Numbered from the stretch's first letter, positions 88 to 58,860 are shown. The stretch: 64,000 bases of DNA from Candidatus Sericytochromatia bacterium (GCA_035285325.1 JAYKJB010000021.1:18549-82548); one strand, 5' to 3'. Made by a program: numbers and translations. Notes: generated from the sequence alone by a model not told the origin.

Positions 88-1917
88 GTGCAAGCGAGGT
101 CGGCGATGGGCCGCCTCGCCCCGGGTGACGCGGGGGCCGAGCGCATCTCGGCGCCAGAGAAGTTCCCGCGCCGGCTATTTCAAGCCCCAAACCTCGAGGA
201 AAGGCTGGTGGCTGGCGCTCGCGTGTACCTGGCTGATGCAGCCGGTCAGCGCATCCTGGGTTTACCCGAGGCTGTCACCAATGCCAAGGGAGAATTTACC
301 ATCGCCAAGGTCCCCCCGGACTACACCTTCGTGGTGGTGGCGGAAATTCCCACCGAATCAGGGCGCACCGCTGCGCTGCAGACGATCGTGCGCCCGACGG
401 CCATGGTGGTCGCCTCGAACATCGAAGCGGCCTCCACCCTGGTCGCAGCGGGCGTCCTGAGGGGGATCGCGGGACAGGACCTGGGGGCCTTCAACCCGGC
501 CGATTTTCGAACGGCCGTGGAAACCACGCGGGACAACCTGCGACCGGAAGATATACCGGACCTCACGGACCGCAGGGCGGTGTTGCGCCGCATCAGCGAG
601 CTGGTCAGTCGTATCGAAGGCCTCGAGGACAGCCTGGCTGACATGCGCAATGAATTGCGGAGCGTCCAAAAATCGCTCGATGAACTTAAAAATGATCTGT
701 CGCAACGACCCGCGCAGCCAGCGGGAAGCCCCACGCCTCCCCCCGCTGCCCAGTCCGTCTCCCGCGACGCGCCAGTTGCGACTGCCCCGATCGACGCCAA
801 AAATTCAGACGTGCCCGGCGGGGAGCAATCAGCGGCGGGACAAGTCCCCGTCGCGACCGGTGCGATCACGCTTCCAAAGCCAGTGACCAGCACGGAACCT
901 ACCCCCAGACCGACACCGGCGGCCACCACCACCCCTGCTGCCCCGGTCCTCTGGAAGGCACCGCTCGGCAAGGTCACCACGTTGGCGGGTTCCGCCCCGG
1001 GGACAGCGGTGGGCCCGGCCCAGACGGCCAGATTCTTCAGCCCGGAGGGTATCGCGCTCGGTCCGGATGGAAACCTGTACGTGACAGACACCAACAATCG
1101 CCGGATTTGTCGAATCAGCCCGGAAGGCCAGGTCTCGGTCTGGGCTGGTGGCACCCTGGGCAGTGTGGATGGCCCCCGCCTCTCAGCCAGCTTCGTGACG
1201 CCATCGCGGCTGGCCTTCGGGCCTGACGGCAGCCTTTACGTCACCGACACCAATGCCTGCCGCATCCGAAAAATCTCGCCCGATGGCATGGTGTCCACGC
1301 TGGCCGGTTCCAATGCAGGCTTTGCCGACGGCCCGGGCCTCATCGCCAAGTTCGATGCGCCCGTTGGATTGTCGGTAGCGCCCGATGGCACCGTGTTTGT
1401 GGCCGACAGCTTGAACAACCGCATTCGCAAGATCAGTCCCCAGGGAATCGTCTCGACGCTGGCGGGATCCCAGGAAGGTTACCTCGACGGGCCGGGGACA
1501 ATGGCACAATTCTACAGCCCGTTTGACCTGGTTTGGCGACCGGATGGCGGCTTGATCGTGGCGGATACCTACAACGACCGGTTGCGGGCGATCGCCCCGG
1601 ATGGGACGGTCACATCCTTGACGCGAGGCGAAATGGGGCTGCGCGACGGGCCTATCGCACAGGCACAATTCGCTCTGCCAAACGGACTGGCGCTGGCACC
1701 CGATGGCAGTCTGTACATCTCGGATGTCGGAAATGATCGGATCCGGGTCATCAGCGCCGACGGCCTCGTCAGCACCCTGGCTGGTTCGCTGATGGGCTTT
1801 GCGGACGGCCAAGGCAGTGCCGCCAGGTTCAACACGCCCTCAGGCTTGGCGCTGGGCCCGGATGGTAGTCTGTACGTGGTCGACCTCGATAACCATCGGA
1901 TTCGCCTGATTCGCTGA
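88..1917 (+). CDS. NHL-repeat beta-propeller protein with N-terminal coiled-coil and a Pro/Thr-rich linker
   Basis: The C-terminal half carries about six repeats of the type 'G.LY[VI][TA]D..N.RIR.IS..G.VS..AG', the NHL signature. The middle region is a PT/PA-rich low-complexity linker. A heptad-like stretch 'ISELVSRIEGLEDSLADMRNELRSVQKSLDELKNDL' suggests a coiled-coil. Confidence 0.75.
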   Translation: MQARSAMGRLAPGDAGAERISAPEKFPRRLFQAPNLEERLVAGARVYLADAAGQRILGLPEAVTNAKGEFTIAKVPPDYTFVVVAEIPTESGRTAALQTIVRPTAMVVASNIEAASTLVAAGVLRGIAGQDLGAFNPADFRTAVETTRDNLRPEDIPDLTDRRAVLRRISELVSRIEGLEDSLADMRNELRSVQKSLDELKNDLSQRPAQPAGSPTPPPAAQSVSRDAPVATAPIDAKNSDVPGGEQSAAGQVPVATGAITLPKPVTSTEPTPRPTPAATTTPAAPVLWKAPLGKVTTLAGSAPGTAVGPAQTARFFSPEGIALGPDGNLYVTDTNNRRICRISPEGQVSVWAGGTLGSVDGPRLSASFVTPSRLAFGPDGSLYVTDTNACRIRKISPDGMVSTLAGSNAGFADGPGLIAKFDAPVGLSVAPDGTVFVADSLNNRIRKISPQGIVSTLAGSQEGYLDGPGTMAQFYSPFDLVWRPDGGLIVADTYNDRLRAIAPDGTVTSLTRGEMGLRDGPIAQAQFALPNGLALAPDGSLYISDVGNDRIRVISADGLVSTLAGSLMGFADGQGSAARFNTPSGLALGPDGSLYVVDLDNHRIRLIR

Positions 1918-1934
1918 ATCACCTCAGAAGCGTC

Positions 1935-2828
1935 GTGGAACCTACCCTCATGTCACGCCTTGCCTCACTGTGCGCCTTGCTTTCGATCCTCGCGCTGCCG
2001 ACGACCAGTCTGGCCTTTCCAGCCCCCTTGCCTCCCGAACAGGGCCAGTGGGCCAAACTGGTCGCCAACTTGCCGCGTGAGACCAACGTGGGCCGCCGCA
2101 CCCATCAGGTGGGACGTGCTCTGCTCGGACAACCCTATCTCGCTGGTAGCCTGAATACTTTCCAGCCCTCCCACCAGGACGAACCGGTGGTGGCACGGTT
2201 CGATGGGTTCGATTGCGTCACCTTGGTTGAAACCGCCCTGGCGATCGCCCGAGCGGAGGATCTGGGAGAACGCTCCTGGAGTGCATTCAAACGAGAACTT
2301 GAGCGGGTCCGGTATCGTGACGGGCATCAGCGAGGCTACGTCAGTCGCTTGCATTACTTCAGCGAATGGCTTCGTGACAATGATCGACGCGGGATCGTTC
2401 AAGACCTCACGGCCAGTTTGGGCGGTGTCGAAGACCGGCGGCCCCTGAACTTCATGTCCACGCACCGCGCAGCCTATCGAAATCTGGCTTCGGATGCGAC
2501 GTTCGCTGCCATCCAGGGAGTCGAAAGCCGCCTGAGCCAGCAGGCGCGTTGGGTCATTCCCAAGGCAAAACTCAGCAGCGTGATGCCCCTGTTGCAATCG
2601 GGTGACATTGTGGCCTTCGCGACGGACATCGATGGACTCGATGTCGTGCATACCGGGCTGATCGAACGGGGGGAGGATGGCGAGGTTCGTTTGCTCCACG
2701 CTCCCCAGCCCGGTGAGGTCGTCCAGGTCAGCCGAAAGAACCTGATGGACTACACCAGCGGCATCGCGCGACAGGTGGGGCTCATGGTGGCGCGGCCACT
2801 CCCTCCCGCGCGCACCGTTCAACCTTGA
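1935..2828 (+). CDS. Secreted hypothetical protein, possibly DUF1460/amidase-like
   Basis: N-terminal signal peptide 'LASLCALLSILALPTTSLA'. An FDGFDCVTLVE motif is reminiscent of DUF1460-type cell-wall amidase-like proteins. The functional label is weak. Confidence 0.5.
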   Translation: MEPTLMSRLASLCALLSILALPTTSLAFPAPLPPEQGQWAKLVANLPRETNVGRRTHQVGRALLGQPYLAGSLNTFQPSHQDEPVVARFDGFDCVTLVETALAIARAEDLGERSWSAFKRELERVRYRDGHQRGYVSRLHYFSEWLRDNDRRGIVQDLTASLGGVEDRRPLNFMSTHRAAYRNLASDATFAAIQGVESRLSQQARWVIPKAKLSSVMPLLQSGDIVAFATDIDGLDVVHTGLIERGEDGEVRLLHAPQPGEVVQVSRKNLMDYTSGIARQVGLMVARPLPPARTVQP

Positions 2829-2910
2829 GCGGACCTTCCCAAAGGCAGGGGCCAGTCAGCGTCAATCAAACTCGCCGCGGGGCAGAGACAACGGGCCGGG
2901 ACCCTGTGGG

Positions 2911-4212
2911 CTAGGGATAGAACCCGCGCAAAGAGGCCGCCTCGAACAGGCGCTCAAGCGCGATCGTATGGGCCGCCTCACGGTAGCTCAGGCCGTCACG
3001 TTCAGCCCGGGAGGCCACTTGTTGCCAGGTGCGGAGCACGAGATCACGCAGGCGGCCCGTCACTTCTTCCTCCGTCCAGAACAACTGATTGTTGTCCTGA
3101 ACCCATTCGAAGTAGCCGACCAAGACTCCTCCCGCATTCGCGATGAGGTCCGGGAGCACCACAATTCCACGTTCGGCGAGGAGCCGGTCCGCCTCAGGGG
3201 TGACGGGCATGTTGGCACACTCGAGAATGACGCCCGCCCGGATCAGTCCCGCATTGCTGCGCGTCACCTGAGCGGACAGGGAGGCCGGCACAAGAATGTC
3301 GCAATCGAGTTGCAACAGTTCCTCTTCCGACATCCGAACGGCCGCCTCGACGCCCTCCAGCAGGCGGTGCGCGTCGACGTGGCGCAGCAGCGCGTGGACG
3401 TCGAATCCTTCCGGCGAATACCAGGCGCCGCTGCGATCGCTGACCCCCACAATGATGGCACCATCGCGATATAGCAGCTGGGACAGCACCCGCCCCAGCT
3501 TGCCGAAGCCTTCAATCACCACCCGCTTTCCACGCACGTCCTCGCCACGCCCTCGCAGGAAGTCCTTGAGCAGGAAATAGGCCCCCTTACCCGCCGAGTC
3601 ACCGGCCAATTGGGTGCCACCAATGACCAGCGGCTTGCCTGTCACGGCCGCCGGCAAGGCATAGCCACGGTTGACGCTCAGGGTGTCCATCATCCAGGCC
3701 ATCTCCCGGCCACTGGTGCTGATATCAGGCCGCGGGATGTCTTTTTTCGGGTCGAAGACCGTCACCATGTCGGAGGTATAGCGCCGGGTCAGACGCTCCA
3801 GTTCCCCCTGCGACATCTGATAAGGGTCAGCCGTCACGCCGCCTTTGGCTCCTCCAAAAGGGATGCCGAGCAAGGCGCACTGCCAGCTCATCAACAAGGC
3901 GAGCGCCGTCACCCCGTCAAGGTCGACTTCAGGATGGAAGCGCACCCCGCCATAGTAGGGGCCGAGGACATTGGAGTGTTGAACCCGATAGCCTGGAAAG
4001 ACCGTGATCTCTCCACTATCGAGTCGCACGGGGGAGTAGGTTTGGATCACCTTGTTCGGCGTGAAGATCCATTCCTGAAATCCTTCAGAAATTCGGAGGC
4101 CCGAGGCGGCCTTCGCCAGCCTCAGGCGCGCTTGCCCCAGCAGGTCCTTGCGGCCCCGATATTGCGCTGGCAAGCGGTTGGTCAGCTGTTGTGCATCGGT
4201 CGCTGAAGTCAT
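2911..4212 (-). CDS. gdhA: Glutamate dehydrogenase (Glu/Leu/Phe/Val dehydrogenase family)
   Basis: Contains 'GIPFGGAKGGV', the catalytic Lys-glycine-rich motif, and a Rossmann-type 'GFGKLG' NAD(P)-binding site. The ATG at 4212-4210 follows an AGGAGG RBS at 9 nt spacing. The track ORF extends to 4275. Confidence 0.9.
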   Translation of the reverse strand: MTSATDAQQLTNRLPAQYRGRKDLLGQARLRLAKAASGLRISEGFQEWIFTPNKVIQTYSPVRLDSGEITVFPGYRVQHSNVLGPYYGGVRFHPEVDLDGVTALALLMSWQCALLGIPFGGAKGGVTADPYQMSQGELERLTRRYTSDMVTVFDPKKDIPRPDISTSGREMAWMMDTLSVNRGYALPAAVTGKPLVIGGTQLAGDSAGKGAYFLLKDFLRGRGEDVRGKRVVIEGFGKLGRVLSQLLYRDGAIIVGVSDRSGAWYSPEGFDVHALLRHVDAHRLLEGVEAAVRMSEEELLQLDCDILVPASLSAQVTRSNAGLIRAGVILECANMPVTPEADRLLAERGIVVLPDLIANAGGVLVGYFEWVQDNNQLFWTEEEVTGRLRDLVLRTWQQVASRAERDGLSYREAAHTIALERLFEAASLRGFYP

Positions 4213-5751: not shown

Positions 5752-6657
5752 ATGACCACCTCAGCCCCCAAACCAGCCTGGCTCAAGGTTCGTCCTCCTG
5801 CCGGAGAACGCTACCAGTTCATCAAGGGGCGCCTTCGCCAACTGGGTCTCGCCACGGTCTGCGAGGAGGCACGCTGTCCCAACGTGGCGGAGTGCTGGGG
5901 AGGCGGTACCGCCACCATCATGGTGATGGGAGACACCTGCACCCGCGGATGCCGTTTTTGCGCCGTCAAAACCAATCGGGTCGGACGCCCGATCGATCCC
6001 GAGGAGCCCATCAAGGTGGCAGGGATGCTGGCGCAACTCGAACTGGACTACGTGGTGATCACTTCGGTCGACCGTGACGACCTGCCCGACCAAGGGGCGG
6101 GACATTTCGCCGCGGTGATCAGGGAGGTGAAAGCGCGGCGCCCCGACATGCTGGTCGAGGTGCTCATTCCTGACTTTCGTGGCGAGCGGGGATTGATCCG
6201 CCTGGTGGCCGACGCGGGGCCTGACGTGATCGCCCACAACGTGGAAACGGTCGCGCGTCTCACGCCCCGTGTGCGCGACCCACGCGCGAACTACCAGCAG
6301 TCACTGGACGTGCTTCGGGTGGTCAAGGAGCATGCCCCCGCGATTGCGACCAAGACGTCGTTGATGATCGGCCTCGGTGAGACAGAGGCGGAAGTGGCGG
6401 AGGCCTTGCGAGACCTGCGCGCGGTCGACTGCGAAATTGTGACCTTTGGCCAGTACCTGCAGCCGACGGCCAAGCATCTCCCTGTGGTAGAGTACGTGCG
6501 CCCGGAGGTATTCGCCGCCTACGAGGACCTGGGCAAACGCCTCGGGTTTCGCTACGTGGCTTCAGGTCCGCTCGTGCGGAGTTCCTACCGAGCCGGCGAA
6601 CTGTTCATCAAGGGGATGCTCGAGGCGCGGAAATCCCCCGCCGTGGCCCATCCCTGA
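5752..6657 (+). CDS. lipA: Lipoyl synthase (radical SAM)
   Basis: 'CEEARCPNVAECW' is the auxiliary cluster and 'GDTCTRGCRFCAV' is the radical-SAM CxxxCxxC site. The C-terminus is typical of LipA. An alternative upstream start at 5719 is possible. Confidence 0.92.
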   Translation: MTTSAPKPAWLKVRPPAGERYQFIKGRLRQLGLATVCEEARCPNVAECWGGGTATIMVMGDTCTRGCRFCAVKTNRVGRPIDPEEPIKVAGMLAQLELDYVVITSVDRDDLPDQGAGHFAAVIREVKARRPDMLVEVLIPDFRGERGLIRLVADAGPDVIAHNVETVARLTPRVRDPRANYQQSLDVLRVVKEHAPAIATKTSLMIGLGETEAEVAEALRDLRAVDCEIVTFGQYLQPTAKHLPVVEYVRPEVFAAYEDLGKRLGFRYVASGPLVRSSYRAGELFIKGMLEARKSPAVAHP

Positions 6658-19346: not shown

Positions 19347-20102
19347 TCAGGGCAGCCCGCTGCTGTCGACCAACCTGTCCACGGCGGTGATGGGGCCGTA
19401 GGTGGCCGCATTCCTGGGTTCCCAAGATGGCCCGCCCTGACGTTTGAGTTGAAACGCCAGAACCTGAACCTGCTCTTCCAGGGCGAGCAGACGGTTGGCC
19501 ATGTCGCGGATGGCCCTGACTTCAGGATCGGCATGAAGGTCGGCCTGCGGCATCAAACGACACGGTGGTCCGAGGGCCACGGCCGCGTCCGGCACATCCC
19601 GCGTCACCACGGCACCAACTTGCAACACCGCGTCGTTCCCGACAAACACGTCACCGGCCACCAGGACGCCTGCTTCGAGTCGCACGCGGTTCCCGATCGA
19701 AGGGTGACCGCGACCAGGCAGTAGCGCTGCATCCGAACGGGCAAGCTCCAGGGGCGTCAAGCCCCCCGAGGTGAGCACGACCCCCGCGTGCAGCACGCAA
19801 TCGTCCCCGAGCATGGCCAACTCTCCCACCACGATGCCGGATCCCAGCAACAGGCAGCGACGCCCCACTCGTGCGGCGGGGTGAATCTCGACGCCGGTTC
19901 GCATCCGCGCGCGATGGGCCAGGCCACGCGCGAGACCGCGGAGATCATTTTGCCAGAGCCAATGGGCCACCCGATGCCAAAGCAGCGCTCGGCAACCTGC
20001 CTCTCCCCAGAGGCAGGCCGCAGGGGTGCGACCCTGGCGTGCCCCGTGAGCGGCCGCCGTCTCCCACAAATCCTGCCAGATCGGCAACCAGCGGCTTGTC
20101 AC
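19347..20102 (-). CDS. cysE: Serine O-acetyltransferase (hexapeptide-repeat family) with C-terminal coiled-coil extension
   Basis: The CysE N-terminal helical domain 'LLWHRVAHWLWQNDLRGLARGLAHRARMRTGVEIHPAARVGRRC' is followed by left-handed beta-helix hexapeptide repeats 'GDDCVLHAGVVLTSGG…IGNRVRLEAGVLVAGDVFVGNDAVLQVGAVV'. Confidence 0.8.
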   Translation of the reverse strand: MTSRWLPIWQDLWETAAAHGARQGRTPAACLWGEAGCRALLWHRVAHWLWQNDLRGLARGLAHRARMRTGVEIHPAARVGRRCLLLGSGIVVGELAMLGDDCVLHAGVVLTSGGLTPLELARSDAALLPGRGHPSIGNRVRLEAGVLVAGDVFVGNDAVLQVGAVVTRDVPDAAVALGPPCRLMPQADLHADPEVRAIRDMANRLLALEEQVQVLAFQLKRQGGPSWEPRNAATYGPITAVDRLVDSSGLP

Positions 20103-20677
20103 GAAGCGGTCAGACCCGGGTCTGGTTCGCCAGGGCCGACCGGTTCACCGAACATGGGGCGCACTTCGACCGTTCCCGAACGCAAGTCGAAAACTTCCAT
20201 CCAATCGAGCGGACCCGCATAAAAATGCAACGAGACGGCGGGCTCATTCAGGTGCGCCGGATTGGACAGGCGATGGGTACTGCCGACTCGGTCCAACAGC
20301 CGCGTCCCGGAGGTCGCATACACAAGCGTGGTGGCCTCGAGTTCCGCCCGGCCAGGCTCCCCGGCGGAGTCGAGTCGCCGGAAGCCTGTACACGCCAGGA
20401 TCCCCTCATGGACGCACACGACCCCAAACGAGCGGCCGTGGTTGTGAACCGGCGTGCCCTGTCCTGGCATCCAGCACAGACAGATGACCTCGACGGCCTC
20501 GTCCCGATAGATGACATGGCGCGCGTAATTTTCAGTGGAGAACTGGATGTGCGGATCCAGCAGGGTCGCGTCGACGCGGAGCCGACAGACCATATCGAAG
20601 AGACGATCCTCCGTCAGCCCCTCGGCGCCAAGCTGCTGGACCTCGGTGATGAAATCAGACCATTCGAGCGAAGCCAT
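20099..20677 (-). CDS. Cupin-fold cysteine dioxygenase type I-like protein
   Basis: The 'PVHNHGRSFGVVCVHEG' His triad (HxH…H) pattern matches bacterial CDO/3-mercaptopropionate dioxygenases. Its 4-nt ATGA overlap with cysE indicates an operon. Confidence 0.6.
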   Translation of the reverse strand: MASLEWSDFITEVQQLGAEGLTEDRLFDMVCRLRVDATLLDPHIQFSTENYARHVIYRDEAVEVICLCWMPGQGTPVHNHGRSFGVVCVHEGILACTGFRRLDSAGEPGRAELEATTLVYATSGTRLLDRVGSTHRLSNPAHLNEPAVSLHFYAGPLDWMEVFDLRSGTVEVRPMFGEPVGPGEPDPGLTAS

Positions 20678-20795
20678 GCCACTCCTCCTGCAGGAGCCCG
20701 ATCGTAGGGGCAGCCCGCAAGCGTGTCAAACACATTCAGGCACGTGAAAACGATATACTGTCCAGGTCAGGAGGCGAGTTTCTCTGTCCGAATCC

Positions 20796-21230
20796 ATGTC
20801 CAATCAACTCCCGCCGCGCACCCTGCTGGGACAGTTCCTCCAGGAACTGGCTCAACAAGGTTTGACGTCGCGCCAGGTGGAATCACACCTGATCTTCCTG
20901 CGTCTTTGGCAAGCCCACGTCAGGCCTGCGCGCCTGCTCGAGGCTTCCCCGGATTTGCTGGCGTCCTTCGTCGATCGCCTGAAGCGCACCCAGGCGCGTC
21001 GTGCAGAGATTCGCTTCGCGGAGGAAGCCATCGAGAACTTTTACGCCTTCGCGCTCGACCGCCAACCCCGATTTCCGGCCCGCGACGCCTGGGAAAAGAG
21101 GTTTCTGACTCCGCCCACCCGCCGGGTGGCCCCGATCTGGGAAGCGTTGGCTGACCGGTTTGCTCCCGCATTGCGGCGCGTCTCACCTGAATGGGTGGTG
21201 TGGCCCGCTCCACCCGAGGGCGAGCCGTGA
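20796..21230 (+). CDS. Hypothetical protein resembling a stand-alone tyrosine-recombinase N-terminal SAM-like/core-binding domain
   Basis: 'QFLQELAQQGLTSRQVESHLIFLRLWQAHV…SPDLLASFVDRLKRTQARRAEIRFAEEAIENFYAFALDRQ' fits the helical core-binding domain pattern. No catalytic R-H-R-Y domain follows. Weak. Confidence 0.4.
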   Translation: MSNQLPPRTLLGQFLQELAQQGLTSRQVESHLIFLRLWQAHVRPARLLEASPDLLASFVDRLKRTQARRAEIRFAEEAIENFYAFALDRQPRFPARDAWEKRFLTPPTRRVAPIWEALADRFAPALRRVSPEWVVWPAPPEGEP

Positions 21231-23077
21231 TCCAAACGCGTCATCCGCTGCTGGCGATTCGGCCGGTCGACCGGCGGGTTCTGGCTCGCCACCTGGTCAA
21301 ACGGGCCGAACAGTTACGTGAAGAGGAGTTGCGGCACCTGCGCCTGCGGGGGCGCCGGGCAGGCCTGTGGCTGCTGCTTTGCGCCCTTGTCATCGGGGCG
21401 CTTTGGCAGTTAGGCCCCTGGCCACTCGGGGTGGCCTTCCAAGGTTGGCTGGCCAGTTGCACGGGGCTGGCCTTGGTTCAGGCATTGGGGGCGCGGCTCC
21501 GGCCGTCCCGTCGACGCCGCCTGCCGGCTTGGCTGGGGAAATTTTTGGGCCTCGGTCAAGACCTTCAGCGGGCGCTCCGCTTTTGGCGAGGGCTACGCCC
21601 CGTCCCGGCATCCCGTTTCATACTGGCCGCGGGCCTGCTCCTGTCCGCGCGCCCGCAACTCTCCTCGACCCTGGTGAGCCGCCTGCTGGGCAGGACCGTG
21701 GGGCCAACGGCAGCGCTCGACGCCCTGGGATGGTTGGTGACAGCGGGTTATCTCGAGCGTGTCTTGGGTACCCCCAGGGTCTTGACACTGAGTGACGAAG
21801 GCCGGCGGCTGTTGCAGGCCCTGGGAGTCAGCCCCTATACAGCGCCGCCCTCACTGGACGTGGCGATTCCGTTGCACCTTCTCCCGATGATGCTGGCCAG
21901 TGGGGAAGCCGCAGCCGAAGTCGAGCCGCCCGAGGAGACCTTGCCTCCGAGCAGCCCGCTGGCAGAGGTCCCAGCCAGCGACCTGGCGCCGGCCGTACCC
22001 ACCGGACGGCCGGCCGTCGCGGCTCAGCGCTCTTGGCGCTGGCACCTGCTATGGTTGCTACCGCTGGCCTTGGCATTCGGCGCCGTGCTGGCGTTGGCGC
22101 TCCCGGCATGGCTGATGCAACTTTCCCCATCGCGACCTCAGCCTGGACTGACCCTCACCCTCCATCACCTGCCCCACAGCCGTGGCACCGTGATCCAGAT
22201 GAGCCACGATCAGCGCCTGCTTTCACGTTTTGCCGGGGACCTGTTCCAGAGTGTGCCGGAACGCTTGGATTACAAGAAACCGCTCAGTTTCAGCGGTTTC
22301 GACATGGCCGCCGACTGTAGCCTGGTCGACCATCGCATCGCCAGGGCTCAAATGTCGCCGATGGGGCGCTTCTTGTGGGTAGAATCCGACAGGCCTCCTG
22401 GTGTCAGCCCCCCGGAGCGTTGCCTGGTCGACCTGGAAACCCGCACGGTGGCGCACGACCTGGGCCGTCGGTTCAAGTCACTGGGAGCGGGAACGGTGGT
22501 GGGCTGGGTCGGGCCTCAGGCGCTGCTGGTCGAACCAGTCGTGAATACGAAGGGTGCTCCCACGTGGGAGGTGGTGGATCCCCTCACGGGTCGCAGTCTT
22601 CCAGTGGCAGTGCCATTCCATCAGTGGTTGCTGCCTCTGCACACGGAAGCGGGATTCACTTGGCTGGCCGGACTGGACAAGAATTCGCCTGACCGCTGGA
22701 CCCTCTCCACCTACTGGTGGAACGGGGTCGATGCTTACCAACCCGTCCGCCCCCCTGCGCCCCTGAACGGCACGTTTCCTGAGGGTCTGGTTCCCCGTCG
22801 AGGTGCCGTATCCCCCGACAAGGGCACCTTGCTGCTGTCTTGGGGCTCGCCCAAAGGCGTCACCGCAGGCAAGCTAGCTCTGGTGACGCTGGCAGACGCC
22901 CGCGTTCACGGGGTACATAGTTCCGCACCGGTTCTGGCGGATGCTCCCCTGTTCTGGGGCACGACCTCCGCGCAAGGTGTCCTGCGCTTCTACTACAACG
23001 TTCGCCGGGACCACGGCGTCGAACCTTGGTCGGGGGAAATTATGCCCCCGCAATCTCAACGACGCGCGGCGAGCTAG
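21191..23077 (+). CDS. Hypothetical polytopic membrane protein with cytoplasmic winged-helix-like segment and large extracytoplasmic C-terminal domain
   Basis: There are two hydrophobic TM stretches ('LWLLLCALVIGALWQLG…' and 'WHLLWLLPLALAFGAVLALALPAWL'). A MarR/PadR-like segment 'LVSRLLGRTVGPTAALDALGWLVTAGYLERV' lies between them, followed by a C-terminal domain of about 330 aa. The real start may be downstream of 21230. Confidence 0.55.
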   Translation: MGGVARSTRGRAVIQTRHPLLAIRPVDRRVLARHLVKRAEQLREEELRHLRLRGRRAGLWLLLCALVIGALWQLGPWPLGVAFQGWLASCTGLALVQALGARLRPSRRRRLPAWLGKFLGLGQDLQRALRFWRGLRPVPASRFILAAGLLLSARPQLSSTLVSRLLGRTVGPTAALDALGWLVTAGYLERVLGTPRVLTLSDEGRRLLQALGVSPYTAPPSLDVAIPLHLLPMMLASGEAAAEVEPPEETLPPSSPLAEVPASDLAPAVPTGRPAVAAQRSWRWHLLWLLPLALAFGAVLALALPAWLMQLSPSRPQPGLTLTLHHLPHSRGTVIQMSHDQRLLSRFAGDLFQSVPERLDYKKPLSFSGFDMAADCSLVDHRIARAQMSPMGRFLWVESDRPPGVSPPERCLVDLETRTVAHDLGRRFKSLGAGTVVGWVGPQALLVEPVVNTKGAPTWEVVDPLTGRSLPVAVPFHQWLLPLHTEAGFTWLAGLDKNSPDRWTLSTYWWNGVDAYQPVRPPAPLNGTFPEGLVPRRGAVSPDKGTLLLSWGSPKGVTAGKLALVTLADARVHGVHSSAPVLADAPLFWGTTSAQGVLRFYYNVRRDHGVEPWSGEIMPPQSQRRAAS

Positions 23078-23331
23078 GCAGGCTCAGCAAGACGCGCAAG
23101 TTGGTAGGTCCACACCCCATTGTCACGCCGGGCGTCCAGCAAGCCCAAACTGGTCATGTAGCTCAGGACGTGAAGCACCTGATCGAGGGGCCTGGCAAGG
23201 AAGCGAGCCAATTCCTCGGCCCGAAATCGGACACTGCGGCATCGCATCAGTGTCTCGAACACCTCTCCAGGCTGAAGCAACCCTGCGCGAATCGCCTCGG
23301 GATGCAAAGCGCGATCGAGCGTTTGTGTCAT
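23074..23331 (-). CDS. Small winged-helix-like protein (hypothetical regulator)
   Basis: An 85-aa product 'MTQTLDRALHPEAIRAG…VLHVLSYMTSLGLLDARRDNGVWTYQLARL' with the look of a wHTH recognition helix plus wing. It is preceded by an AT-rich palindromic element. Confidence 0.5.
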   Translation of the reverse strand: MTQTLDRALHPEAIRAGLLQPGEVFETLMRCRSVRFRAEELARFLARPLDQVLHVLSYMTSLGLLDARRDNGVWTYQLARLAEPA

Positions 23332-23397
23332 CGTTTCACCTCTGCTCGCGTTGTTGTGCCGTAAGTCATAGCGTACCCGCGATGTCTGTGCTTTAAA

Positions 23398-23432
23398 CAC
23401 AAGTTCACAAGTTATTTCGAAACTTTTTCGAA
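23398..23432 (-). promoter_or_regulatory. AT-rich operator-like element: tandem CACAAGTT x2 plus two TTCGAA-centred palindromes (TTTCGAAA and TTCGAA)
   Basis: Sequence 23391-23435 is 'ctttaaacaCAAGTTCACAAGTTaTTTCGAAActttTTCGAAtcc'. It lies in the intergenic region upstream of the small wHTH gene, whose minus-strand start is at 23331. Confidence 0.35.
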
Positions 23433-23491
23433 TCCGTGGCAAGCGTGTTGGGTGCAGGGGCGTTCACCGGGCCCGATTTCAGACCTGCCTC

Positions 23492-24040
23492 CTACAGAAA
23501 CACGCCCGCTTCGATCCCCAGCAAGCCATTGGGCAGGCCAAAGCACGCCAGGTCCCACGTCAGCGCCTCGCCCCAGTGCCCGGTGGCACCAAGAGCGGCG
23601 TGGGGCACGAAAGGCCAGGGGAGGTCCGCACGCGGGGCGGGATAACGCCCGCCTGTCACTCCCAGCTCGACATAGGGACCACTCTGCCCCCCGGGCACCA
23701 GGTAGTACAGCGCACCCGCACTGAAGCGGTAGTGGTCCGCAGGATTCCAATTGAAACCGCTTGGAGCCCAGATGCCCCAACTGGCGCCGAGTTTAAGGGC
23801 CATCGGCTCGGCGGGCAGCAAGTAGCCCAGCGTGAGGCCCCAGCCTTGCGGCGCGGTGGTGACCAGCCCCAGCCGCCACCCCGCAGGAGGGGACAGCGGC
23901 AGCGGAGGCAAGGCCCCTCCTGGTCGTCGGTTGACGACCCAGCGAGGCGTCTCTTCCACCGCCGCGTAAGCGCCTGGCGTCACTCCCACGCCCAACAAGG
24001 CCCACGCCAACCCGGCGCTCAAGCTACGAGCGGCTGTCAT
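23492..24040 (-). CDS. Putative small outer-membrane beta-barrel protein
   Basis: Signal peptide 'LSAGLAWALLGVGVTPGAYAAVEE'. The mature part is about 150 aa of alternating hydrophobic beta-strand-like segments rich in Gly, Trp and Tyr. Confidence 0.45.
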   Translation of the reverse strand: MTAARSLSAGLAWALLGVGVTPGAYAAVEETPRWVVNRRPGGALPPLPLSPPAGWRLGLVTTAPQGWGLTLGYLLPAEPMALKLGASWGIWAPSGFNWNPADHYRFSAGALYYLVPGGQSGPYVELGVTGGRYPAPRADLPWPFVPHAALGATGHWGEALTWDLACFGLPNGLLGIEAGVFL

Positions 24041-58775: not shown

Positions 58776-58855
58776 GCTCAGGTGGCGGAATTGGCAGACG
58801 CGCACGTTTGAGGGGCGTGTGGGAAACCGTATGGGTTCAAGTCCCATCCTGAGCA
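58776..58855 (+). tRNA. tRNA-Leu (anticodon GAG), class II
   Basis: Acceptor GCTCAGG pairs with CCTGAGC. The D-arm TGGCGGAATTGGCAGACGCG is nearly identical to E. coli tRNA-Leu. Anticodon stem CACGT/GCGTG with loop TTGAGGG gives anticodon GAG at 34-36 and G37. The variable arm is 11 nt. T-arm is ATGGG-TTCAAGT-CCCAT. Discriminator A. CCA is not encoded. Confidence 0.85.
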
Positions 58856-58860
58856 CTGTT

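Follow-up and report, generated by a model that had tools for sequence, protein, structure and literature searches.

A translationally coupled gene pair of Candidatus Sericytochromatia combining a stand-alone recombinase core-binding fold with a membrane-anchored winged-helix and beta-propeller protein

Genes at the locus and their coupling

In a 64,000-nucleotide stretch of DNA from a Candidatus Sericytochromatia bacterium (GCA_035285325.1, JAYKJB010000021.1:18549-82548), further referred to as the window, three neighbouring open reading frames (ORFs), named ORF1, ORF2 and ORF3, had been brought together in a preliminary description as an uncharacterised three-gene patch, encoding a core-binding-like domain of recombinases, a membrane protein and a small winged helix-turn-helix (wHTH) protein. 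The oxygenic cyanobacteria have uncultured, non-photosynthetic sisters in the Sericytochromatia, a group about whose regulation, to our knowledge, almost nothing is known. We report here on these three genes, of which ORF1 and ORF2 probably constitute a previously undescribed signalling pair.

All three ORFs were located at the positions described and are real, coding genes (Table 1). The initial ORF listing placed ORF1 at 20796-21230 (144 aa), ORF2 at 21191-23077 (628 aa) and ORF3 at 23074-23442 (122 aa). The GTG at 21227 is the most likely start of ORF2, because it overlaps the stop codon of ORF1 as GTGA (21227-21230) and because the resulting protein is 100% identical to the NCBI protein VKP62_03495, encoded in a Candidatus Sericytochromatia metagenome-assembled genome. 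The earlier size estimate of about 630 aa for this membrane protein is replaced by 616 aa, or 628 aa if the alternative ATG is used. ORF3 starts at ATG 23331, preceded by the ribosome-binding site GAGGTGA, and the stop codons of ORF2 and ORF3 share the sequence CTAG (23074-23077), which bears out the length of 85 aa, the convergent orientation and the 4-nt stop overlap proposed for this gene. The G+C content by codon position of ORF1 (0.71/0.50/0.72) and ORF2 (0.72/0.54/0.74) matches that of the flanking glpD, aminotransferase and birA housekeeping genes, so that the possibility of a non-coding ORF1, which had been considered beforehand, is contradicted by its codon usage. ORF3 has lower values (0.69/0.45/0.66) but displays the same pattern. 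The window has a G+C content of about 64%, and a compositional break is absent around 20.8-23.4 kb. Identity between orthologues amounts to 55-59% for ORF1, 34-46% for ORF2 and 57-73% for ORF3 (68-70% in one comparison).

Table 1. Coordinates of the genes, protein segments and upstream regions in the window
Feature	Position	Strand	Description
ORF1	20796..21230	+	144 aa; stand-alone tyrosine-recombinase core-binding (CB, SAM-like) fold protein
ORF2	21227..23077	+	616-aa membrane protein; preferred start GTG 21227, alternative ATG 21191
ORF2 residues 1-24	21227..21298	+	predicted cytoplasmic motif RHPLLxLxPxxRRxLA; best-conserved segment, 52% mean identity to the window protein
ORF2 residues ~44-90	21356..21496	+	variable hydrophobic hairpin of two transmembrane (TM) helices, TM1 and TM2; 21% identity; model helices 13-61 and 67-90
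ORF2 residues ~131-201	21617..21829	+	very basic, predicted cytoplasmic winged-helix-like domain; helix, helix, beta-hairpin, helix in the model
ORF2 residues ~202-268	21830..22030	+	disordered Pro/Ala/Glu linker, model confidence (pLDDT) <50; 48-115 aa across the family
ORF2 residues ~271-300	22037..22126	+	main TM helix; Kyte-Doolittle peak 2.49; model helix 271-298
ORF2 residues ~308-606	22148..23044	+	predicted extracytoplasmic beta-propeller, ~24 strands, six-blade-like, pLDDT 80-93
ORF3	23074..23331	-	85-aa small winged-helix protein, convergent with ORF2
ORF3 upstream region	23332..23491	-	promoter-like blocks TAAA, GGGTA, ACGG and GGAGGT, conserved in an alignment of six orthologous upstream regions
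Divergent intergenic region	20678..20795		between the minus-strand cysteine-dioxygenase-like (CDO-like)/acetyltransferase operon and ORF1; promoter scan

ORF1 lies immediately upstream of ORF2 in 15 of 15 distinct loci, which are distributed over three unrelated genomic contexts. In context 1, shared by the window and the related loci L001/L006, L002, L003, L005 and L007, the gene order is glpD, acetyltransferase (minus strand), cysteine-dioxygenase-like cupin (minus strand), ORF1, ORF2 and ORF3 (minus strand); L009 belongs here by its left-hand neighbourhood, its contig ending within ORF2. Context 2 consists of recG and a metallophosphatase gene followed by ORF1-ORF2 (L008, L010, L012, L013 and L014), and in context 3 (L015) a COX3 gene and the gene of a LytR_C protein flank the pair. 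The contigs of L011 and L016 were too short for a context to be assigned, L016 being a further coupled pair. In most loci the ORF1 stop and the ORF2 start share 4 nt; the overlap reaches up to 17 nt in L002 and L016, and the two genes overlap or abut wherever the junction was called (the ORF2 start of L014 was deduced from its identity to the protein P0052). The most divergent pair, that of L015, is still coupled, with an ORF2 that matches the family profile at E 1.8e-25 and an ORF1 that is 41% identical over 111 aa.

ORF3 behaves differently. It adjoins ORF1-ORF2 only where the glpD/acetyltransferase/cysteine-dioxygenase-like block is syntenic too, and it is missing from the flanks of the pair in contexts 2 and 3; in the context 2 loci, neither ORF3 nor the cupin and acetyltransferase genes were found within reach of ORF1-ORF2. 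Because the pair is coupled in three contexts and ORF3 is present in one, ORF1-ORF2 is a translationally coupled two-gene operon and not part of a three-gene system. The grouping into a three-gene patch is therefore not upheld, and co-occurrence across genomes, which had been suggested as a check, holds for ORF1 and ORF2 but extends to ORF3 in context 1 only. Since the whole neighbourhood is syntenic wherever ORF3 is present, its membership cannot be separated from shared ancestry. We regard ORF3 as a small wHTH regulator in its own right, which lies next to the pair by synteny in one sub-lineage and is not an obligate partner.

Families, folds and architecture of ORF1 and ORF2

Searches against Pfam, NCBIfam, PHROGs and PADLOC returned nothing above threshold for ORF1, ORF2 or ORF3 (the same held for ORF4), in line with the earlier statement that none of the three products has a clear family. 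PDB sequence searches with profiles of ORF1, ORF3 and the wHTH of ORF2 likewise gave no significant match; a PDB match of ORF1 to NSD histone methyltransferases (E 0.11) was dismissed as chance. With ORF1 alone as query, the word-indexed protein search found only the query itself, and a four-sequence alignment recovered the ORF1 family, which comprises 40 members of 133-165 aa that are 38-58% identical to the window protein and share 19 invariant positions. For ORF2, 10 relatives were retrieved in a word-indexed search of 5.8 billion clusters and 18 when 1.84 billion representative proteins were scanned exhaustively with a HMMER profile, the weakest of the 18 (P0063, E 2.6e-7) being a generic lactonase/PD40 propeller of which one blade was matched. 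Scans of genome and metagenome collections added 3 and 1 loci, respectively. Wherever an organism name was given on a match, it was Candidatus Sericytochromatia, and the ORF1-ORF2 pair has thus been found so far only in this group. In the literature that we searched, neither stand-alone CB-domain proteins nor regulators from Sericytochromatia were described.

Residues ~10-90 of ORF1 form the CB (SAM-like) fold of tyrosine recombinases. In Pfam, Phage_int_SAM_1 was the only model that responded (E 0.025; 15.3 bits versus a gathering cutoff of 22.3), with an alignment running over the profile from end to end. The structure matches of ORF1 included an archaeal XerC-like recombinase (score 10.0), XerD (10.0), the Brujita integrase (9.7) and XerA (9.7), followed at lower scores by the CB domain of lambda Int (8.6), SroF (9rd5; 8.3) and MrpR (8a0a; 7.6), the latter two being recombinase-fold repressors; a sigma-factor domain did not occur in this list. 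On the strength of these structure matches, the reading of ORF1 as a stand-alone core-binding-like domain is confirmed at the fold level. Its resemblance to the N-terminal domain of recombinases only was equally confirmed: ORF1 ends at residue 144 without a Phage_integrase Pfam match or a C-terminal catalytic domain (R-K-H-R-H/W-Y), and no recombinase catalytic remnant was found downstream, where ORF2 follows in another frame. Beyond the CB fold, the protein carries two Trp-rich C-terminal helices (residues 96-103 and 113-129), and W99, W115 and W136 are invariant or near-invariant.

Compared with tyrosine recombinases such as IntI4, XerC/XerD/XerA and lambda Int, with which the CB helical domain is shared, ORF1 and its 40 relatives lack the catalytic domain and form a neutral to acidic rather than a basic family; ORF1 itself is 8-14% identical to the recombinases, adds the Trp-rich two-helix tail and shares its operon with the gene of a membrane protein, outside a mobile element. 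Recombinase-fold proteins are known to serve as regulators, namely MrpR (YopR of SPbeta) and SroF (phi3T), which are phage-encoded, soluble proteins with a CB-like and a catalytic-like domain (~320 aa). ORF1 differs from these in corresponding to the CB part only, in being chromosomal and in being coupled to a membrane protein.

The layout of ORF2 was derived from the family alignment, hydropathy and an AlphaFold2 model (mean pLDDT 72), all of which agree (Table 1). In the wHTH segment the stretch LVLAAGLLL and residues R142, S146, R152 and R156 are conserved, the pI is 9.2-12.0 in 17 of 17 homologues, and residues 147-198 are modelled as helices, a beta-hairpin and a further helix. Sequence matches of the unit at residues 131-201 were to winged-helix proteins only (NsrR/Rrf2, MarR, S19e and RecX), all of them below threshold. 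The model of the C-terminal domain is all-beta, and its best Foldseek match is TolB; the sensor domain of PknD (1rwi) was also matched, and the blade motif SPDxxxLLL is present, without a PD40 or NHL signal in Pfam. Two near-invariant cysteines of the propeller, C364 (22316-22318) and C399 (22421-22423), lie in its most conserved motifs, GFDMAADC and ERCLVDxETRTVxHD. They may be joined in a periplasmic disulfide or make up a site that senses redox state or metals.

Lys and Arg are enriched in residues 1-44 and 90-270 of ORF2, and the N-terminus and wHTH are accordingly predicted to lie inside and the propeller outside, the orientation being read from this Lys/Arg distribution only. Hydropathy, the Lys/Arg distribution and the model agree with the earlier picture of a polytopic protein whose wHTH lies between TM helices on the cytoplasmic side and whose large domain is outside. 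Identity is 40-52% in the N-terminal motif, the wHTH and the propeller and 20-27% in the TM segments and linkers. Selection acts on the former three and not on the connectors, the pattern one would expect if passive segments join an input domain to an output domain.

A 505-aa form of ORF2 also occurs (P0007-P0010; L003 6001-7518), without the N-terminal TM hairpin and with a much less hydrophobic main TM helix. It pairs with a short, 136-aa form of ORF1 starting with MHTLLDQF, which may reflect co-variation of the partners or simply phylogeny.

A possible transmembrane signalling pair and its alternatives

Transmembrane transcription regulators are widespread (PMC10269533, PMC9214523), with more than 100 kinds of DNA-binding domain, and 56% of them are single-pass proteins (PMC10269533). 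Those of the ToxR/CadC type with their co-components are the nearest functional analogues of ORF1-ORF2, sigma/anti-sigma pairs being the other close analogue. The reading we favour, at slightly less than an even chance, is that ORF1 and ORF2 form a transmembrane signalling pair with a transcriptional output that follows a ToxR/CadC-like logic. ORF2 would be the sensor and anchor, with its outside propeller of ~300 aa binding a ligand or an envelope protein, a role for which the extracellular propeller of PknD (1rwi) offers a precedent. The TM helix and the flexible Pro/Ala linker would connect the propeller to the basic wHTH and the N-terminal motif in the cytoplasm. ORF1, an exapted recombinase CB fold, would be a soluble helical partner that is made in step with ORF2 and binds its cytoplasmic part. 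The output would most likely be transcriptional, the tethered wHTH acting on DNA together with, or under control of, ORF1. We infer a physical interaction of the two proteins, DNA binding, a signal perceived outside and target genes. As regards the membrane-tethered regulator or anti-sigma analogue that had been suggested for this locus, the idea is retained as the best functional guess for ORF1 and ORF2, but without ORF3.

The comparison with known systems shows what is shared and what is not. ToxR, CadC and TcpP, with ToxS, TcpH and VtrC, have in common with ORF2-ORF1 a cytoplasmic winged helix, a flexible linker, a TM segment, an outside sensor and a small partner gene, and ORF2 possesses both a membrane anchor (TM ~271-300) and an extracytoplasmic sensor-type domain (308-606). 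The wHTH of ORF2, in contrast, is not of the OmpR type and does not lie at the extreme N-terminus, its sensor is a beta-propeller, and its partner ORF1 is encoded upstream and predicted to be cytoplasmic instead of being a downstream-encoded periplasmic or membrane protein. Trans_reg_C matched neither ORF2 nor the wHTH segments of 14 homologues (E <= 1), and the fold predicted for ORF2 is a generic wHTH. Extracytoplasmic function (ECF) sigma/anti-sigma pairs similarly have the gene of a small cytoplasmic protein overlapping the start of a membrane protein gene whose product contains a Pro-rich linker and an outside domain, and this order of a small soluble and then a membrane protein was found in 15 of 15 ORF1-ORF2 loci. 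Neither a sigma-70 region (2 or 4) in ORF1 nor an anti-sigma domain of the ZAS, zf-HC2, RskA or RsgI type in ORF2 was detected, and the N-terminal motif of ORF2 has no Cys/His zinc pattern. Because these defining domains fail, with no Trans_reg_C, sigma regions or anti-sigma domain, only a resemblance in logic is claimed. With TolB and the PknD sensor, the C-terminal domain of ORF2 shares a beta-propeller fold, here probably of six-blade size and with the blade motif SPDxxxLLL. The ORF2 propeller differs in standing on its own TM helix tied to a cytoplasmic wHTH, TolB being soluble and PknD linked to a kinase; moreover, ORF2 has no TolB_N match and no TolB alpha/beta N-terminal domain with a cleavable signal peptide, its first 300 residues being helical, TM and wHTH. 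The architecture is rather a variant of known designs for trans-membrane signalling than categorically new, with both families unannotated and narrow.

Several observations weigh against a transcriptional signalling pair. The exposed residues of the putative recognition helix of ORF2 are not conserved, whereas helices 1 and 2 are, a pattern equally compatible with a winged helix that binds protein and with one that reads DNA; for DNA binding by ORF2 from the membrane, the basic pI of 9.2-12 is a point in favour and the non-conserved recognition helix a point against. The N-terminal half of ORF2 was modelled at moderate confidence (pLDDT 46-82). ORF1 may not bind DNA: its family is not basic (net charge -9 to +4, median pI 6.0), and helix 4, the equivalent of the DNA-contacting CB helix, carries the conserved acidic residues E71, E77, E80 and D88, for which reasons canonical DNA clamping by ORF1 is doubtful. 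Furthermore, a conserved operator was not detected, inspection by eye of the DNA upstream of ORF1 in the different loci showed no palindrome in common, and no known homologue ties ORF1, ORF2 or ORF3 to transcription. We also considered, and rejected, the idea that ORF1 is uniformly acidic and in this way binds the basic ORF2 wHTH. Because the window ORF1 is basic (net charge +4, pI 10.6) in a family with a median pI of 6.0, the charge of ORF1 is non-diagnostic.

Given an unconserved recognition helix and a non-basic ORF1 family, the pair could alternatively act, in our judgement with a rather low probability, in the envelope as a non-transcriptional scaffold, with ORF2 as an anchored propeller, its wHTH as a protein-interaction module and ORF1 as a cytoplasmic adaptor. 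TolB being the best match of the propeller is consistent with such a role, as are the LytR_C envelope protein next to the pair in context 3 and lptF in the window neighbourhood, and in RodZ a membrane-anchored HTH binds MreB; the basic character of the wHTH speaks for an action on DNA instead. Another and still less likely arrangement is sequestration, in which ORF1 would be the DNA-binding effector, held at the membrane by the wHTH and N-terminal motif of ORF2 and released upon a signal at the propeller or upon proteolysis. The order of a small soluble protein gene and an overlapping membrane protein gene is the classical ECF sigma/anti-sigma layout, the CB fold binds DNA in recombinases and in MrpR and SroF, and the conservation of ORF2 in helices 1-2 and the N-terminal motif, and not in the recognition helix, suggests a protein-binding surface. 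Set against this are the same conserved acidic residues in ORF1 helix 4.

In a three-gene system resembling BlaR1/BlaI or MecR1/MecI, ORF3 would be a repressor controlled by the ORF2 sensor, with the convergent overlap providing antisense coupling. We regard this as improbable. ORF3 does abut or overlap the 3' end of ORF2 in 6 of the 7 context 1 loci with both ends visible (including the window, L001-L003 and L005; L007, with a gap of 67 nt, is the exception), and it is the most conserved of the three proteins. It is, however, not found beside ORF1-ORF2 in contexts 2 and 3, and the full synteny wherever it is present makes the linkage inseparable from ancestry. Moreover, ORF2 has no Peptidase_M56 match, no HExxH occurs in five ORF2 homologues, ORF3 lacks a Penicillinase_R signal, and no specific similarity between ORF3 and the ORF2 wHTH was seen. 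That ORF1 is the orphaned N-terminal piece of a broken tyrosine recombinase gene, and the locus a decayed mobile-element remnant, can effectively be considered refuted. The CB fold without a catalytic domain, and the serine recombinase and M78 peptidase two genes upstream in L012, could be cited for it. The family of 40 members of steady length with its 19 invariant residues, the constant presence of ORF2 after ORF1 in a different frame without catalytic-domain remnants, the normal codon-position G+C and the absence of a G+C anomaly, a nearest tRNA gene 35 kb away and the lack of a PHROGs match all argue against it.

Should the favoured transmembrane signalling pair be correct, it would show cleanly how the DNA-clamp domain of a recombinase, once separated from the catalytic domain, was taken into a cellular two-protein module, and it would add a family to the transmembrane transcription regulators, one that domain-based censuses overlook because neither protein matches a Pfam model. 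More tentatively, and with the balance of our judgement leaning against it, the exapted CB domain together with a new family of membrane-tethered wHTH proteins with a propeller sensor might make this undescribed Sericytochromatia pair a third solution to transcription control across the membrane, next to sigma/anti-sigma pairs and systems of the ToxR/ToxS type. It is unusual for a stand-alone exapted CB domain to be coupled to a membrane sensor, whereas lineage-specific hypothetical operons are common. As a conserved operon restricted to Sericytochromatia, the pair could mark a lineage-specific envelope or environment-sensing trait; before a function is established, it is of modest practical value.

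ORF3, upstream DNA and neighbouring genes

ORF3 contains an invariant stretch, DQVLHV.S.MTSLGL, where the recognition helix would lie. Its Pfam matches, all sub-threshold, were to the wHTH family 'Dimerisation' in 4 of 4 members (best E 1.7e-4), to TrmB (1.6e-3) in one and to Rrf2 (0.048); the earlier classification as a small wHTH protein agrees with these matches, which are to winged-helix families only. A relation of ORF3 to the ORF2 wHTH as paralogues was rejected (hhalign probability 0.7%).

ORF3 is probably autoregulated. The AT-rich palindromic operator proposed in front of it does exist as a palindrome, TTCGAAA-N3-TTTCGAA at 23416-23432, but lies within chance expectation: when the 181-nt region was shuffled, 26% of the shuffles contained an equal one. 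Nor is its sequence retained at orthologous loci, although AT-rich stretches occur at that position in other loci too.

In the divergent intergenic region, conservation of which was compared across L001-L003 and L007, a near-consensus sigma-70-type promoter (TTGACA-17-TACGAT, 20729-20701) serves the minus-strand CDO-like/acetyltransferase operon, and a conserved -10-like element, GGTATACT/TATACT, is located at 20754-20759 upstream of ORF1. In the recG-context loci, a GGGAGGAACGG...CCTCGGTATAATAA block is conserved upstream of ORF1 (L008 ~5930-5975, L012 ~3955-4000), and in L008 this block contains a 7-bp inverted repeat (GAGGAAC/GTTCCTC) just before a -10-like TATAAT. The block could be a candidate operator.

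The only RNA gene detected with Rfam in the window encodes tRNA-Leu(GAG) (58776-58856, plus strand), ~35 kb from ORF1-ORF2, and no association of it with any integrase-like gene examined was seen. At L012, an M78 peptidase gene and that of a large serine recombinase (Resolvase + Zn_ribbon_recom) occupy 269-3122, just upstream of the metallophosphatase-ORF1-ORF2 block, which suggests insertion of a mobile element beside the pair in that genome only.

Upstream of ORF1 in the window, at 19347-20677 on the minus strand, the gene of a cysteine-dioxygenase-type cupin (CDO_I, E 1.5e-13) overlaps that of a serine-O-acetyltransferase-like hexapeptide protein, which scores far under the cysE/EpsC cutoffs. 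This operon and its promoter are conserved divergently from ORF1 in the context 1 loci and represent an unusual sulfur/cysteine-related pairing. On the other side, at 23492-24040 on the minus strand, lies an ORF of 182 aa whose N-terminus (MTAARSLSAGLAWALLGVGVTPGAYAA) resembles a signal peptide and whose sequence is Gly/aromatic-rich and of beta type, without a Pfam, NCBIfam or PADLOC match. It may encode a small outer-membrane protein, and among the fetched loci it has a counterpart in L002 only, with 49% identity.

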